A DNA stretch of 62,506 nt, counting the filler, from an uncultured bacterium (lineage in GTDB: Bacteria; CAYJOG01), in assembly GCA_964371695.1 (NCBI GenBank). It is 9 parts of 9 records of this genome, joined end to end, with 100 filler letters (N's around TTAATTAATTAA, not from the genome) between each part and the next. Parts side by side here need not be neighbours in the genome. Positions count along the whole stretch, not along the records: positions 34,930 to 41,772 come from CAYJOG010000157.1; 8 more parts are not named here. One strand, written 5' to 3'. Shown in pieces: positions 7,006 through 56,819 of this stretch (position 1 is its first letter; each line of letters begins with the position of its first letter). A program made the translations under genes and the position numbers. Under the pieces are notes generated by a model, which saw only the letters and a program-made list of their open reading frames with translations, did no database searches and was not told where the DNA came from.

Positions 7006-7137
7006 GCCCCTTCGGCGTGGCGAAAACCTGCGCTTTTTCAAAGCTCCGGTTTTCGGATGCAGCCATCCCTGGCTGCAAGAGCCTGCCTGAACTGCCCCAT
7101 GTCAAACATGGCCCAATTTTTATAGGCAGGCTCTACA

Positions 7138-14092: not shown

Positions 14093-14139
14093 CCCTCTCC
14101 CCTCTGGGGAGAGGGTGGTCCGTAGGACCGGGAGAGGGG
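14093..14139 (-). repeat. boxC-like composite palindrome, downstream of DUF559 gene
   Basis: Minus strand reads CCCCTCTCCC-GGTCC-TAC-GGACC-A-CCCTCTCCCC-AGA-GGGGAGAGGG. Confidence 0.85.
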
Positions 14140-14150
14140 TCAAACAAAAA

Positions 14151-14516
14151 TCACACCTTTTTTCTCTCCAAAACTTGTTCAGCGATTGCCTGCAACACGC
14201 TCTGTGTCCTCGCCATCACGTCATGGTTAAAAGCCCGCAAGACAAAAATCCCCCGTGAGGCCAAAAAATCTTCCCGCTTTCGGTCATGGGCAAGACCTTC
14301 GGCGGAAAGATGCTGACTGCCGTCAACTTCCACCGCCAGGGCCAGTTCGGGGCAATAAAAATCAAGCACATACCCTTCAATGACGTATTGACGACGAAAC
14401 TTCACCCCCAGCAGGTTGTGTCTGCGCAAATGCCCCCAGAGGAGTTTTTCGGCCATCGTGGATTCCCGTCTGAGCTGGCGGGAAAAAGCCAAGGGCTTGG
14501 CAGCGTATTTGGGCAC
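14151..14516 (-). CDS. DUF559 (Vsr-like PD-(D/E)xK) endonuclease domain protein
   Basis: 'RQLRRESTMAEKLLWGHLR', 'KFRRQYVIEGYVLDFYC', 'LAVEVDGSQH' and 'DRKREDFLASRGIFVLR'. Confidence 0.9.
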   Translation of the reverse strand: MPKYAAKPLAFSRQLRRESTMAEKLLWGHLRRHNLLGVKFRRQYVIEGYVLDFYCPELALAVEVDGSQHLSAEGLAHDRKREDFLASRGIFVLRAFNHDVMARTQSVLQAIAEQVLERKKV

Positions 14517-14560
14517 AAAAGTATTGTGGGGGAAAAAACTAAGGTGTTACCTATATTTAG

Positions 14561-14607
14561 CCCCTCTCCCGGCACTCCGTGCCACCCTCCCCCCAAAGGG
14601 GGGAGGG
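14561..14607 (+). repeat. boxC-like composite palindrome, upstream of DUF559 gene (inverted relative to 14093-14139)
   Basis: CCCCTCTCCC-GGCAC-TCC-GTGCC-A-CCCTCCCCCC-AAA-GGGGGGAGGG. Confidence 0.85.
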
Positions 14608-26060: not shown

Positions 26061-26234
26061 GAACCTGTTTGAAAAGCCCGTCGTGGACTTTTCAAACTCC
26101 CGGCTGGCGGGGGCAAAGCCCCCTTGCCGGGGCGAAAACCTCAGTGTTTTTAACACTTCGGCTTTCGGGTGCGGTCATCCATGACCGCAAGCCCCTGTTT
26201 GAAAACAAATCTTCATTCGTTTTCAAACAGGCTC
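26061..26234. mobile_element. 174-bp MITE with 15-bp TIRs and 3-bp CAA flanking duplication
   Basis: GAACCTGTTTGAAAA ... TTTTCAAACAGGCTC, with CAA at 26058-26060 and 26235-26237; internal hairpins. Confidence 0.7.
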
Positions 26235-31506: not shown

Positions 31507-31556
31507 CCCCTCACCCGGCGCTACGCGCCACCCTCTCCCCATAAAGGGGAGAGGGG
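31507..31556 (+). repeat. solo boxC-like composite palindrome inside the ABC operon
   Basis: CCCCTCACCC-GGCGC-TAC-GCGCC-A-CCCTCTCCCC-ATAAA-GGGGAGAGGGG. Confidence 0.85.
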
Positions 31557-36891: not shown

Positions 36892-39800
36892 ATGCGTTCT
36901 GGCCCCGGCCCCTATAAACCGGCGGGCCGCCATTTTGAGGTGGCCCAGGAAGAAGCCCTTCTCGCCCTCTGGGAAACCCAGCGGATGTTTGAGCGCTCGG
37001 TGGAAAACCGGCGCGGCCAGAAGCCTTTTGTGTTCTACGAAGGCCCCCCCACCGCCAACGGTGCGCCCCACCCCGGCCACCTGCTCACCAAGGCCATGAA
37101 AGACCTCTTCCCCCGTTATTTCACCATGACGGGCCACTGCTGCGAGCGCAAAGCCGGCTGGGACACCCACGGCCTGCCCGTGGAAATCGAAGTGGAAAAA
37201 CAACTGGGGCTGAAAAGCCGTGAAGACGTTGTGGAATATGGCGTGGAAAAGTTCGCCCAGCTCTGCCGCGAAAGCGTGTGGAAGTACAAGGGCGAATGGG
37301 AGACCACGGTGCGCCGGGGGGGCTTCTGGATTGACATGCAGCACCCCTACATCACGCTCGATAACAGCTACATCGAGTCGGTGTGGTGGGTGCTCAAGCA
37401 ACTGCACGAAAAAGACCTGCTCTACAAAGGCCACAAGGTGGTGCCCTATTGCCCCCTCACGGGCACGGTGCTGTCGTCCCACGAAGTCAGCCAGGGTTAC
37501 AAAGAGGTGGAAGACCCCTCGGTATTCGTGCTCATGGCGCGTGAAGGCGCCCCCGGCGAGTTTTTTCTGGTGTGGACCACCACCCCCTGGACACTGCCCG
37601 CCAACGTGGCCCTGGCCCTGGCTCCCAAGGCCGACTATGCCCGCGTGAAACTGGCGGACGGACGCATTGTGATTCTCGCCAAGGCCCTGGTAGAAAAAGT
37701 GCTGGCCAAAGAGGAAAACCCCTATGAAATCCTCAGCACCCTGCAGGGCAAAAAACTGGTGGGCGAGCGATATACGCGACTGTTTGCCGACCTGCCGGTG
37801 GAAAAAGGCGAAACCGTGCTGGCAGGGGATTTTGTCACGCTGGAAGACGGCACGGGCATTGTACACATCGCCCCCGCCTTTGGTGAAGAAGACTACAAGC
37901 TGGGCCGCGCCCACGGCCTGAGCCTGCTGGACCCCATCACGCCCCAGGGCACGTTTTCAGCGTCTGTTGACTGGCTGGAGGGGCAATATTTCAAGGACGC
38001 CGACAAAACCATCCTGCGGGCGCTGAAAGAAAAAAATCTGCTCTTTCGCCGCGAGCAGTTCAAACACAACTACCCCTTCAACTGGCGGCGGCCCGACAGC
38101 CCGCTGATGTACCGCGCCCGTGAGTCGTGGTTTATCGCCATGACCCAGGTGAAAGACCGCCTGCTCAAAAACAACCAGTCCATTCACTGGCACCCGGAAC
38201 ACATCAAGGATGGCCGCTTTGGCGATTTTCTGAACAACGTCATTGACTGGGCGCTTTCGCGCAACCGTTTCTGGGGCACACCCCTGCCGGTGTGGATCTG
38301 CGAGGGCTGCGCCCACGAGCTGGTGGTGGGGTCGGTGAAAGAGCTGGAAGCGCTGTCAGGCAAACACCTGGCCGATCTGGACCTGCACAAACCCTACGTG
38401 GACGAACTCACGTTCACCTGCCCTGAGTGCCAGCAGGCCACCATGCGCCGGGTGCCCGAAGTGATTGACTGCTGGTTCGATTCCGGCGCCATGCCCTATG
38501 CCCAGTGGCACTATCCCTTCGACGAAAAAAACCGCTTCGAAGACCGTTTCCCCGCCGATTTCATCTGCGAGGCCATCGACCAGACCCGTGGCTGGTTCTA
38601 TTCCATGCTGGCCATCGCCACCGCCCTGGACAAACCCGCCCCCTACCGCCACTGCCTGGTGCTGGGACACATTCTGGACAAAGACGGCCAGAAGATGAGC
38701 AAGTCCAAGGGCAACGCCCTGAGCGGCCTGGACATGATGAACACCTATGGGGCCGACGCCGTGCGATGGACGCTCTACGCCGGCTCTGACCCCTGGCTGC
38801 CCAAACGTTTTTATCCCGAAGTGGTGGCCGACGCCCGGCGGCGGTTTCTGGGCACCCTGCACAACGTCTATTCCTTTTTTGTGCTCTACGCCAACCTGGA
38901 CCACTTCACACCCGACCAGTTTGACGTGCCCCACGGCGAGCGCCACGAACTGGACCGCTGGATATTGAGCCGCTTGAGCCAGCTCACCCGCGAGGTGCGC
39001 GAAAGACTGGAAGACTTTGACGTGGCCCCGGCGGCCCGCGCCATTGAATATTTCGTGGTGGAGGAACTCAGCAACTGGTATCTGCGCCGCAGCCGCGACC
39101 GCTTCTGGGCCAGCGAATGGACCACCGAAAAAAAGGCGGCGTTCCTCACGCTGCACGACGTGCTGGTGAAAATCACACAAATCGCCGCGCCTTTTACCCC
39201 TTTTATCACCGAAGAAATCTGGCGCAACCTGACCGGCGCGGGCGAAGCCGACAGTGTGCATCTCACCGACTACCCCACCCCCACGCCCGGCCACGAAGAC
39301 ACCGAACTGGACGAACGCATGGAACTGGCCCGGCGGCTGAGCGAACTGGGGCGGTGTATTCGCCAGGAGGCCCGCCAAAAGGTGCGCCAGCCCCTAGCCG
39401 CCGCCTATCTCAAAGCCCCCAAAAACCAGCACGAACTCATCCGGCAGGTGTGGCCCATCGTGGCCGAAGAAATCAACGTCAGGGCACTGGAACTGCCCGA
39501 TGACTTCAGCCAGTACGCGCTGTTTCAGGTGCAGATCAACTTTAAAGAGGCAGGCCCGGTGCTGGGCGCACGGGTGAAGGAAGCCCAGGCCGCCATGAAG
39601 GGTTGCGACTGCGCCATGGTGGCGCAGACGCTGGAAAAGGAAGGCCACGTCACCCTGCAACTGGCCGACGGCCCCGTGGACCTGAAGGCCACCATGGTGC
39701 GGGTGGACCTGAAAACCAAAGAAGGTTTTGCGGTGGGGCGAGACGGCGACCTGATGATGGCGCTGGACGTGCAACTGACCGATGAACTGCTGCGCGAAGG

Positions 39801-40047
39801 TTTGGCGCGGGAGTTCAACAACCGCGTGAACGCCCGCCGCAAGGACATGAACCTGAACGTGAGCGACCGGGTGGAAGCCCTGGTGTTCGCCGGGCGCGAG
39901 GTGATGGTGGCGCTGAAGGAACACGAGGGGTTCATCAAGGAAAACGGCATGTTGCGCGCCCTGCGTTTTCTGGACAAACCCTGCCCCGAACTGCCGGAGA
40001 GCGAAAAACTCAATGAATACGACGTGCGGTTTGTGCTGAAGGCGTGA
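36892..40047 (+). CDS. ileS: isoleucine--tRNA ligase, type 2
   Basis: 'YEGPPTANGAPHPGH', 'GWDTHGLP', 'WTTTPWTLPAN', 'KMSKSKGN', C-terminal 'EGLARE..RVNARRKD'; no type-1 C-terminal Zn finger. Confidence 0.95.
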   Translation: MRSGPGPYKPAGRHFEVAQEEALLALWETQRMFERSVENRRGQKPFVFYEGPPTANGAPHPGHLLTKAMKDLFPRYFTMTGHCCERKAGWDTHGLPVEIEVEKQLGLKSREDVVEYGVEKFAQLCRESVWKYKGEWETTVRRGGFWIDMQHPYITLDNSYIESVWWVLKQLHEKDLLYKGHKVVPYCPLTGTVLSSHEVSQGYKEVEDPSVFVLMAREGAPGEFFLVWTTTPWTLPANVALALAPKADYARVKLADGRIVILAKALVEKVLAKEENPYEILSTLQGKKLVGERYTRLFADLPVEKGETVLAGDFVTLEDGTGIVHIAPAFGEEDYKLGRAHGLSLLDPITPQGTFSASVDWLEGQYFKDADKTILRALKEKNLLFRREQFKHNYPFNWRRPDSPLMYRARESWFIAMTQVKDRLLKNNQSIHWHPEHIKDGRFGDFLNNVIDWALSRNRFWGTPLPVWICEGCAHELVVGSVKELEALSGKHLADLDLHKPYVDELTFTCPECQQATMRRVPEVIDCWFDSGAMPYAQWHYPFDEKNRFEDRFPADFICEAIDQTRGWFYSMLAIATALDKPAPYRHCLVLGHILDKDGQKMSKSKGNALSGLDMMNTYGADAVRWTLYAGSDPWLPKRFYPEVVADARRRFLGTLHNVYSFFVLYANLDHFTPDQFDVPHGERHELDRWILSRLSQLTREVRERLEDFDVAPAARAIEYFVVEELSNWYLRRSRDRFWASEWTTEKKAAFLTLHDVLVKITQIAAPFTPFITEEIWRNLTGAGEADSVHLTDYPTPTPGHEDTELDERMELARRLSELGRCIRQEARQKVRQPLAAAYLKAPKNQHELIRQVWPIVAEEINVRALELPDDFSQYALFQVQINFKEAGPVLGARVKEAQAAMKGCDCAMVAQTLEKEGHVTLQLADGPVDLKATMVRVDLKTKEGFAVGRDGDLMMALDVQLTDELLREGLAREFNNRVNARRKDMNLNVSDRVEALVFAGREVMVALKEHEGFIKENGMLRALRFLDKPCPELPESEKLNEYDVRFVLKA

Positions 40048-40070
40048 TGGGGAAGCGGCCCAAAAATCTT

Positions 40071-40342
40071 TGCTCTCTCCCTGAGGGAGAGGGCATTTCA
40101 GGATAATTTTCCTAAAAAACAATACAGGCTTTCAAGAACGGGGCAGATGCCCACAAGCCTTTGCCCTCTCCCTTAGGGAGAGGGCAGCCGAGGGTTGAGC
40201 ACAGCGAAACCCGAGGCGGGTGAGGGGGATAAGGAATGAAGGGCAATGAACTCGGTTTTTGATCCACCGGGCTTTCCCCCTCACCCGCCCGTAACCTCAC
40301 TCCGTTCGGTTACGGCCTGCCCTCTCCCTGAAGGAGAGGGCA
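40071..40342. repeat. cluster of three boxC-like palindromes downstream of second DUF559 gene
   Basis: Hairpin only at 40071-40095; full copy on minus strand at 40162-40228; full copy on plus strand at 40276-40342. Confidence 0.85.
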
Positions 40343-40352
40343 AGTCGGTTAA

Positions 40353-40748
40353 TCAGATTTTTTCTGATGCGGCACCTGCGGATTGCCCCCCTTTTCGGGC
40401 TTCGACAACCCGCCAAATTTCTTCCAGTACCGATTCAGTTCGGCACAACACGTCGTTATCCCAAAAACGGATGATTTTTATCCCACGGTCCCAGAAAAAG
40501 TTTTCCCTCTTCTGGTCTTTTTGCAGTTGTTTTTCTTCCAGATGCTGACCACCATCCAGTTCCACACCCAGCGCCAGTTCTTCACAATAAAAATCCAGGA
40601 TGTACGGCGACACGGGGTGTTGGCGGCGGAACTTGACCCCACCCAGTCGCCTGTTTCGCAACAGAAGCCATAAAAGCTCTTCTGAATCGGTCAGTCTCCC
40701 CCTTAGCTCCCGCGCATAGGCCAAAGTTCTGGGATGAACAGGGGACAT
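40353..40748 (-). CDS. DUF559 endonuclease domain protein, second paralog
   Basis: 'ARELRGRLTDSEELLWLLLRNRRLGGVKFRRQHPVSPYILDFYC' and 'VELDGGQH', 'IIRFWDNDV'. Confidence 0.92.
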   Translation of the reverse strand: MSPVHPRTLAYARELRGRLTDSEELLWLLLRNRRLGGVKFRRQHPVSPYILDFYCEELALGVELDGGQHLEEKQLQKDQKRENFFWDRGIKIIRFWDNDVLCRTESVLEEIWRVVEARKGGQSAGAASEKI

Positions 40749-40860
40749 GGCCGGATGGTAACACCCACCAGTTTCTGGTTTCCCTCAATGCCTTTCTCTT
40801 TCCCGCTTTGTCTTTTTTGCCACTACACTGACTCACCCATCACCAAGAAGGAGCATCACC

Positions 40861-41772
40861 ATGGCCACCGCCACCACCAAAAAGCCCGCTAAAAAAGCAG
40901 CCCCCAAAAAACTGGCAACCAAAACCGCCGCCCCTAAAAAACCGGCCCCCAAAGCCCACGCCCCGGCACGGGTGGAGCGCATCAGCACCAACCCGGCCAC
41001 TGGCGAAGACCTGGGCAGTTACCCGGTGTTCACGCCCGACGAAGTGCGCGCCGCCATCGCCCGCGCCCGTGCAGCCCAGCCCCGCTGGGCGGCGTTCTCC
41101 CTCGAAAAACGCATCGAGTTCATGAAGCGCGTGAAGCGCGACATCCTCAACCACATGGGCGACTTGGCGGAGCTTATCTCCAAGGAAAGCGGCAAACCCC
41201 GCGTGGAGGCCCACAACGCCGAGATCATTCTCATCTGCGACCTCATTGACTATTTCTCCAAAGAAGCCCCCAAGCTGCTGGCCGACGAAAAACTGCCCAT
41301 GCCCCAGGTGGCCTTCAAAACCAAATCCACCAAACTTTTTTATGCCCCCCTGGGTGTCATCGGCGTCATCAGCCCCTGGAACTGGCCCTTCGCCATTCCC
41401 ATGAGCGAAATCATCATGGCGCTGATTTGCGGCAACACGGTGGTGCTCAAACCCGCCGAGCCCACCAGCCTGTGCGGCCTGCGCATCGGCGAGCTGTTTG
41501 ACCGCGCCGGTGTGCCCGAAGGCGTGGTGGAAGTGGTGACCGGCTCTGGCAGCAGCACGGGTCAGGCGCTGGTAGAGGGCGACGTGGACAAGGTGGTGTT
41601 CACCGGCTCTGTGGAAGTGGGGCGGCACATCATGGAAACCGCCGCCAAACGCCTGTGCCCCGCTGTGCTGGAACTGGGCGGCAAAGACCCGATGATCATC
41701 TGCGAAGACGCTTACCTGAACGCCGCCGCCGAGGCCGCCGTGTGGGGGGCTTTCTTCAACCAGGGTCAGGTG
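40861..41772 (+). CDS. aldehyde dehydrogenase (3' truncated) with Lys/Ala/Pro-rich N-terminal extension
   Basis: 'NPATGE', 'PLGVIGVISPWNWP', 'GNTVVLKPAE', 'FTGSVEVG' and 'LELGGKDP'. Confidence 0.93.
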
Positions 41773-56516: not shown

Positions 56517-56819
56517 CTCATAAATCCATCCATGGATTTATTCGAACGCCGTGGCCGGAAGTAAAATCCGGCCACGAGCGCGAAAACCTGCGGGTTAATA
56601 ACCCTCCGGTTTTCGGCGCAGGTCTTCCTGACCTGCCAGAAGCCATCTTTTTGATATTTATGCGACGGCTTCCAATGCCTGAGCAAACGGGTGGGGCGGT
56701 TGGGCGGTTTGCCAGACAATCCCGTGTCATTTGATGTTTTTTTTATGCGGGCAAGGCAATCCTTTACCCCACTTTGATGTCAAAGGCGCGATATTCCTTT
56801 ATCAGAAGGAGGAATCGTC

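Follow-up and report, generated by a model that had tools for sequence, protein, structure and literature searches.

A gene of the DUF559 family lies in this DNA directly against a cluster of small repeats, and the locus raises the question of whether the product of this gene is the enzyme partner of the repeats or whether gene and repeats are simply neighbours. The window, i.e. the whole stretch of DNA that was analysed (62,506 nucleotides, filler included), is composed of nine separate contigs with N spacers between them and is not one 62 kb stretch. These contigs belong to a draft assembly (3.43 Mb, 672 contigs, 83% complete). The genome set used for comparison contained no relative of the source genome closer than the domain level.

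An earlier note on this DNA had described a diverged DUF559 gene ending 10 bp from one bare hairpin and two full repeat copies in opposite orientation. The gene was confirmed by its Pfam match and is intact, 10 nt separate its stop from copy 2, whose outer end points to it, and the coordinates and orientations of all three repeats were upheld (Table 1). The internal hairpins differ between the copies as described, and the TG/CA closure was also seen: copy 1 has a 33-nt internal segment with a GGGTT/AACCC stem and the block order loop-3 hairpin, internal hairpin, GGGTGAGGGG, while the internal stem of copy 2 is CCGTAACC/GGTTACGG, with one C-A mismatch at the innermost pair. All three repeats belong to family A, defined here as hairpins with a loop of at most 4 nt. 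The two 9-nt third strands of the focal doublet are separated by a 51-nt spacer, and this distance is 45–51 nt in 15/16 family A doublets. On folding, the focal doublet forms one long single-stranded DNA hairpin (z -7.05; ViennaRNA, with triplexes outside the model). The gene lies outside its doublet and has repeats on the 3' side only; a pattern search found no repeat upstream of it. The junction between copy 2 and the gene end is bridged with 0 differences by contigs from public runs (X3 record 21, 40294-40451), all from one study that may include the source sample. An Rfam search returned sub-threshold miRNA hairpin matches only, and a profile search for Y1_Tnp at the locus returned only DUF559 and weak MTES_1575 matches. 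The product of the left neighbour is presumably IleRS, as judged by its three Pfam domains.

Table 1. Features of the focal locus and of the second DUF559 locus in the window (positions along the window).
Feature	Position	Strand or orientation	Details
Bare family A hairpin	40071-40095		TG/CA-closed, loop TGA, one G-T pair
Copy 1, family A, end type A1	40162-40228		Loop-3 hairpin 40164-40184, 33-nt internal hairpin, GGGTGAGGGGG
Doublet spacer	40229-40275		Between copy 1 and copy 2
Copy 2, family A, end type A2	40276-40342	Opposite to copy 1	CCCCTCACCC, 33-nt internal hairpin, loop-3 hairpin
Focal DUF559 gene (YcjD-like, Vsr/PD-(D/E)XK fold)	40353-40748	-	131 aa, intact; PF04480 E 1.8e-33
ileS, left neighbour, outside element	36892-40047	+	PF00133, PF08264, PF19302
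Aldehyde dehydrogenase, right neighbour, outside element, truncated at contig end	40861-41772	+	PF00171 E 5.6e-82
Variable block with gene and all three repeats	40046-40811		163 other letters in relative
Second DUF559 paralog locus	14093-14607	-	Gene 14151-14516, enclosed by two inward-facing second-family repeats with loop 5 and a 14-nt internal segment

The gene and its repeats are variable as one block. In a 2562-nt contig from a groundwater run (X5), 39000-40045 is matched with 107 differences and 40812-41699 with 61, and the 766 bases between them are left out. This relative is about 90–93% identical in ileS and aldehyde dehydrogenase, and 163 other letters join 40045 to 40812 in it, so that it lacks the three repeats along with the gene (one contig). 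A second X5 contig has a doublet resembling family A, in other surroundings. A target duplication was not found at the focal block.

Known since the 1990s and found in over 260 genomes, BoxC-type repeats are associated with local instability and have no enzyme assigned to them in the published account (PMC4666352). Holder et al. (2015; PMC4666352) described polymerase stalling and local instability at these motifs, a second loop of 3 nt, and inverted pairs that always combine type A with type B (5/5 in K-12); the main text of that paper places no mobility gene near the motifs and contains neither DUF559, ycjD nor endonuclease. The focal repeat resembles BoxC/PIT/TMECO in its blocks CCCTCTCCC-loop-GGGAGAGGG plus GGGTGAGGG, i.e. 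a C-rich stem, a G-rich stem and a second G-rich strand. The hairpin CCCTCNCCC-N3-6-GGGNGAGGG is exact in copy 1 and has one mismatch each in copy 2 and the bare hairpin; the second G-rich strand GGGNGAGGG is present in both full copies and missing from the bare hairpin. Family A is also intergenic and arranged in inverted pairs of unlike partners (15/16). In contrast to the published motif, the second loop of the focal copies is a 33-nt hairpin and not 3 nt, and the strict TMECO pattern, matched 29 times in the genome, is not matched in 40000-40400. For these two reasons the focal repeat is classed, from its sequence pattern, as a long-linker variant of the BoxC/PIT/triplex motif and not as strict TMECO. 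A literature search at listing level, with subscription papers and supplements outside its scope, found no link between DUF559, YcjD or COG2852 and BoxC-type repeats.

Genome-wide, the motif is represented by 302 hairpins, in which the third strand is clear in 226, missing in 67 and ambiguous in 9. The subtype count proposed in the earlier note gave 84 hairpins for family A (2 or 3 of which appear not to be true members), with a TCA/TGA loop in 77 and TG/CA closure in 61; the internal segment is 32–35 nt in all 51 full copies. Neighbouring hairpins less than 600 nt apart face inward in 58/83 pairs. Family A is combined with another class in just 2 of these 58 doublets, compared with 24.2 expected (0/10000 shuffles), and pairing among the non-A classes is random (same class in 11 of 40 pairs, 11.9 expected). 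The genome thus holds two segregated populations, family A and a second family. The proposal of a distinct subtype for each paralog survives in so far as the focal gene lies beside segregated family A; four paralog-specific subtypes were rejected, since the non-A classes pair at random. The sixth hairpin of the window (31531-31555) belongs to the second family, with a loop of 7 and a 14-nt internal segment, and stands alone, away from any DUF559 gene.

Family A doublets pair two end types: 15/16 were scored by script as A1 plus A2 heterodimers, and the exception, C422, resembles A2 on visual inspection. Focal copies 1 and 2 differ because of this left/right pairing and not through drift at the focal locus. 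The focal doublet is 63–82% identical to the other 15. The internal stems hold their pairing through sequence change (A1 0.77 versus 0.72 with shuffled partners, A2 0.87 versus 0.71, in a type of test that copy relatedness inflates). Other bare family A hairpins, e.g. those in C414, C48 and C79, often have outer-type flanks on both sides, and neither flank of the focal bare hairpin is inner-type. Because of these flanks, bare family A hairpins, including the focal one, are likely doublets that collapsed by deletion between two palindromic hairpins.

In a 91-row alignment, the focal protein conforms at 5/5 invariant positions and at 13 near-invariant ones, among them D52, E63, D65, H69 and D78, and it matches PDB 3HRL with E 3.8e-20. 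Its structural model (pLDDT 91.6) has a fold that matches 3hrl (E 2.3e-8) and I-Bth0305I 3r3p (E 5.5e-4), with 1vsr reaching only 0.16. On the strength of residues and model the protein is predicted to be a nuclease. To our knowledge, no substrate has been described for DUF559 proteins, including YcjD of E. coli. In very-short-patch repair, Vsr typically has the gene of its partner cytosine methyltransferase next to its own, whereas no such gene lies beside the focal one, which has ileS and aldehyde dehydrogenase as neighbours. Unlike I-Bth0305I, the focal protein is a stand-alone 131-aa domain encoded by a free-standing intergenic ORF with no intron or intein host. DUF559 has previously been grouped with Vsr, and the fold and candidate catalytic residues of the focal protein agree with this grouping (PMC3424549; 3HRL, 3R3P, 1VSR). 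The best homologues of the focal protein are 57–58% identical, and loop-3 hairpins adjoin most of its nearest protein neighbours. GC3 is 0.53 in the focal gene versus 0.79 in ileS.

Four DUF559 genes are present in the assembly, and every one of them touches a repeat. Three (C154, C145 and C565) each lie between an inward-facing pair of second-family repeats, where a doublet would have its spacer of about 50 nt, and are therefore flanked on both sides. The focal protein is 42–49% identical to the other three paralogs, and C145 and C154 are 64% identical to each other. All four fall in the loop-3 group when the class is predicted from the protein only, yet the three non-focal ones carry hairpins with loops of 5–7. 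A single clade of the four has p-AU 0.45, i.e. it is neither shown nor rejected, and a careful 43-row tree leaves the four unresolved; a quick tree groups them, together with one foreign protein, with support 82. With such identities, a shared predicted class and this tree result, the earlier description of the focal gene as an independent paralog is neither proved nor excluded. The explanation favoured over its rivals, in which this paralog is the enzyme that partners family A and the other three serve the second family, is regarded as almost an even call, leaning slightly against.

The association of DUF559 genes with hairpins extends far beyond this genome. From 306 DUF559 loci gathered, 139 of them chosen by likeness to the focal protein, 293 domain matches were usable. 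Within 100 nt, a pyrimidine/purine hairpin is present upstream at 152/284 loci and downstream at 164/281, and beyond 500 nt such hairpins fall to 0–3% per 100-nt bin. Where orientation is unambiguous, inward-facing hairpins prevail over others both upstream (43 versus 16) and downstream (33 versus 19); one-sided and outward arrangements also occur. The focal gene, with the outer end of its doublet towards it, departs from the prevailing arrangement, which counts against the favoured explanation. At several loci (L037, L073, L107, L192, L197, L198, L202 and others), the DUF559 domain, flanked by hairpins on either side, sits inside an open frame that is between 300 and over 1000 codons long, an arrangement that hints at a cassette inserted in-frame into host genes.

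The class tests drew on 155 loci sampled domain-wide from 85 genomes, this one included, among the matches listed (G222 and G283 have no loci in it). A hairpin was not detectable at 38/156 loci and was present at 118, of which 27 were left out of the class tests as mixed or unclassified, leaving 91 labelled loci. Hairpin similarity drops with protein distance across families (Mantel rho -0.32, 0/999 shuffles as low, 118 loci). The hairpin at the nearest protein from a foreign family is more similar than that at the more distant paralog of the same genome in 61 versus 12 of 74 loci, or 25 versus 1 of 27 genomes. Mapping the flanking subtype on the DUF559 tree, as the earlier note had proposed, gave a non-random distribution by clade: 23 class changes versus 48.4+-2.6 when shuffled and 33.9+-2.8 when shuffled within genomes (91 loci), and, when each family is represented by one locus, 12–16 versus about 25. 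More than one hairpin class occurs in 17/22 multi-paralog genomes. Hairpin type thus follows the DUF559 clade rather than the host across the 85 genomes. Mutual information between residues and hairpin class is at most 0.43 and is confounded by descent. Five foreign genomes rich in loop-3 hairpins were searched for the long-linker loop-3 form and gave 1 match, a tandem short form that is not family A, so family A may be lineage-specific as judged from these five.

The tree signal has a second possible source. Since a gene and its flanks are linked, co-inheritance of the two could by itself produce it, and the tracking of the DUF559 tree by hairpin type leaves the co-evolution suggested in the earlier note unproven. 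An independent-pairs test found 3–4 pairs on supported branches (median p 1), a number at which it has no power. The corresponding alternative is that repeats and gene are co-inherited cargo, moved for example by a DDE transposase acting on a TAGAGC...GCTCTA envelope, with no recognition by DUF559 and with the tree signal carried by travelling flanks. Such envelopes exist: 38 ends of two types lie 38–44 nt from family A or D hairpins, and MITE-like TAGAGC ends adjoin 42/84 family A hairpins, about 45 nt out. The envelope encloses either a family A doublet or one bare hairpin, or is empty (C18:10180-10470, C414:2975-3094, C281:2494-2571), and similar ends surround unrelated palindrome families. 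Because the ends that adjoin half of family A also occur empty or around other palindromes, they point to a second mover for the TAGAGC-ended subfamily. The focal doublet, however, has no envelope (outer flanks z 0.8 and -0.5), and doublet and gene lack the terminal inverted repeats expected of a MITE; 25/51 full family A copies are below z 5 for the envelope, the second family almost never has one, and no recognisable transposase gene was found behind the ends in 59 extra matches inspected, many of which stop at contig edges.

Unlinked copies bear on the same alternative and were counted in 400 genomes because linkage alone could produce the tree signal. At least 10 dispersed hairpins were found in 39/82 DUF559-positive versus 21/318 negative genomes (kin are not independent in this count), and at least 5 in 49/82 versus 34/318. 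The class predicted from the protein alone, by a leave-family-out procedure that was right for 64/91 loci, is enriched among dispersed copies: loop-3 in 7/23 versus 6/57, loop-5 in 14/27 versus 11/53 and TT-type in 22/44 versus 6/36. The dominant dispersed class equals the predicted class in 18/30 single-class genomes, compared with 11.6 expected (77/10000, again with kin not independent). This agreement of unlinked copies with the protein, together with the envelope-free focal doublet, argues against the cargo explanation, which we consider unlikely.

Other small elements are numerous in this genome. An element of about 180 nt with GAGCCTGTTT-type ends occurs in dozens of copies, and the TCA/TGA loop of family A hairpins is its insertion site at C284:2390, C71:6432-6615, C40:11393-11566, C309 and C253. 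The 3-nt loop is duplicated in C284 and C71, which resembles the target duplication of the IS5 family. Three copies of another repeat family, at window positions 7006-7091, 26118-26203 and 56580-56628, resemble the interior of this element. A palindrome arm, GTCATTCCCGCG, has 246 genome matches, often next to the second repeat family, and probably corresponds to the CGTC-tagged REP class described in PMC3733652.

In a genome crowded with small mobile repeats, the gap between ileS and aldehyde dehydrogenase might instead be an insertion hot spot that separately gathered a DUF559 gene and family A; the relative with 163 other letters at the site, the position of the gene outside its doublet and the lack of an upstream repeat agree with such an accident. 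The earlier note had counted five of six repeat copies beside DUF559 genes. Five of the six hairpins in the window do adjoin the two DUF559 genes, but as an enrichment statistic this was rejected and the linkage was overstated, the window being nine contigs and the genome holding 302 hairpins. Adjacency is nevertheless above chance. A family A element lies within 100 nt of either gene end in 49/2207 ORFs (2.2%), a background that would favour accident, yet only 4/2207 stops lie within 20 nt of one and 8/2207 ORFs are flanked by repeats, whatever their class, on both sides (crude ORF calls throughout, in which the DUF559 genes may be included). Against accident also stand the contact of 4/4 DUF559 genes with a repeat, the one-sided and outward arrangements at other DUF559 loci, and the finding that no second DUF559 gene lies beside family A in the 83% complete assembly. 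A bracketed family A copy of the gene could be absent from the assembly, as 26/84 family A hairpins are cut by contig ends. Accidental adjacency is judged quite improbable.

Another explanation grants recognition and stops there: the protein would bind its cognate hairpin or triplex and merely resolve it during replication or transcription, and the repeats would persist without being copied. The Vsr-like fold of the focal model suits such a caretaker, as do the polymerase stalling and local instability at the motifs (PMC4666352), and the clade-subtype match and co-occurrence are explained equally well. It leaves unexplained, however, why a gene occupies the place of the spacer inside inward-facing pairs, as well as the patchy multi-paralog distribution and low GC3. 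In addition, repeats persist without the gene in many genomes: 21/318 genomes with no strong DUF559 match have at least 10 copies, and up to 209. This count weighs against the favoured explanation as well. Four genomes (G054, G125, G253 and G365) contain 113–209 hairpins of one class with no DUF559 match at E 1e-22; their enzyme may have been lost, be unassembled or have diverged, or another mover may act there. The caretaker role is held to be distinctly unlikely.

In E. coli, ycjD was reported in 3378/5426 genomes, where it alternates with the eef operon (PMC12817139). K-12 carries ycjD and 23 strict motifs, one of them beside ycjD, and the DUF559-free strains IHE3034, IAI39 and Sakai carry 1, 6 and 11 motifs (four strains in total). 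The strict motif at K-12 1351205-1351239 (L005) lies about 170 nt past the stop of ycjD, whose last codons are overlapped by a degenerate loop-3 hairpin. YcjD is 42% identical to the focal protein, and the single YcjD of K-12 coexists with loops of 3, 4, 5 and 6. Loop length is therefore no strict specificity code, as paralogs predicted to be loop-3 also carry loops of 5–7.

The most far-reaching reading is that DUF559/YcjD proteins and BoxC-type triplex repeats form a RAYT/REPIN-like replicator based on a PD-(D/E)XK nuclease, in which each protein lineage would read its own hairpin or triplex shape and keep a separate, non-interbreeding repeat population; this genome would have two, with the focal protein as the dedicated enzyme of family A. 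Taken as a whole, this proposal is tentative and still somewhat doubtful. The likeness to RAYT/REPIN lies in the many dispersed inverted doublets with few enzyme genes, each beside repeats, and in diverged paralogs per genome that go with different repeat groups and often have their nearest relatives in other genomes (PMC3116915; PMC3733652). In contrast, DUF559 has the Vsr fold of PD-(D/E)XK enzymes and is not an IS200-type tyrosine transposase, and no GTAG or CGTC tag occurs at the focal hairpin ends. By analogy, the pairing would work like RAYT/REPIN without being a member of it, because the enzyme is unrelated. RAYT itself was rejected as the mover, as three weak Y1_Tnp genes (C11, C29 and C53; L307-L309) have no triplex-motif hairpin within 700 nt.

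From the architecture, the family segregation and the co-distribution observed, we infer recognition, cutting and spreading of the following kind. The DUF559 protein would bind the pyrimidine/purine hairpin, or a triplex formed in single-stranded or supercoiled DNA, and would nick or cut there; host repair or recombination might then copy, swap or collapse the sequence between hairpins. We know of no strand-joining activity in Vsr-fold proteins, so joining would have to be supplied by host repair. Doublets would be the non-autonomous units and gene-filled pairs the autonomous ones, in the manner of RAYT/REPIN with an unrelated nuclease. The focal gene may have been rearranged, having lost its own brackets or moved away from them, and would serve family A in trans. 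It is likely that each nuclease recognises its own repeat family, and it may help to spread that family.

What the focal locus adds is the two-population structure, a test of protein over host, a test on unlinked copies and a relative without the block. With two segregated populations and four paralogs, specificity is directly testable on four small proteins and two substrate sets. If the dedicated-enzyme reading is true, the genome would be a natural cross-specificity experiment. If the replicator proposal is true, it would provide a non-transposase route of repeat spread and a candidate family of structure-specific (hairpin or triplex) nucleases.
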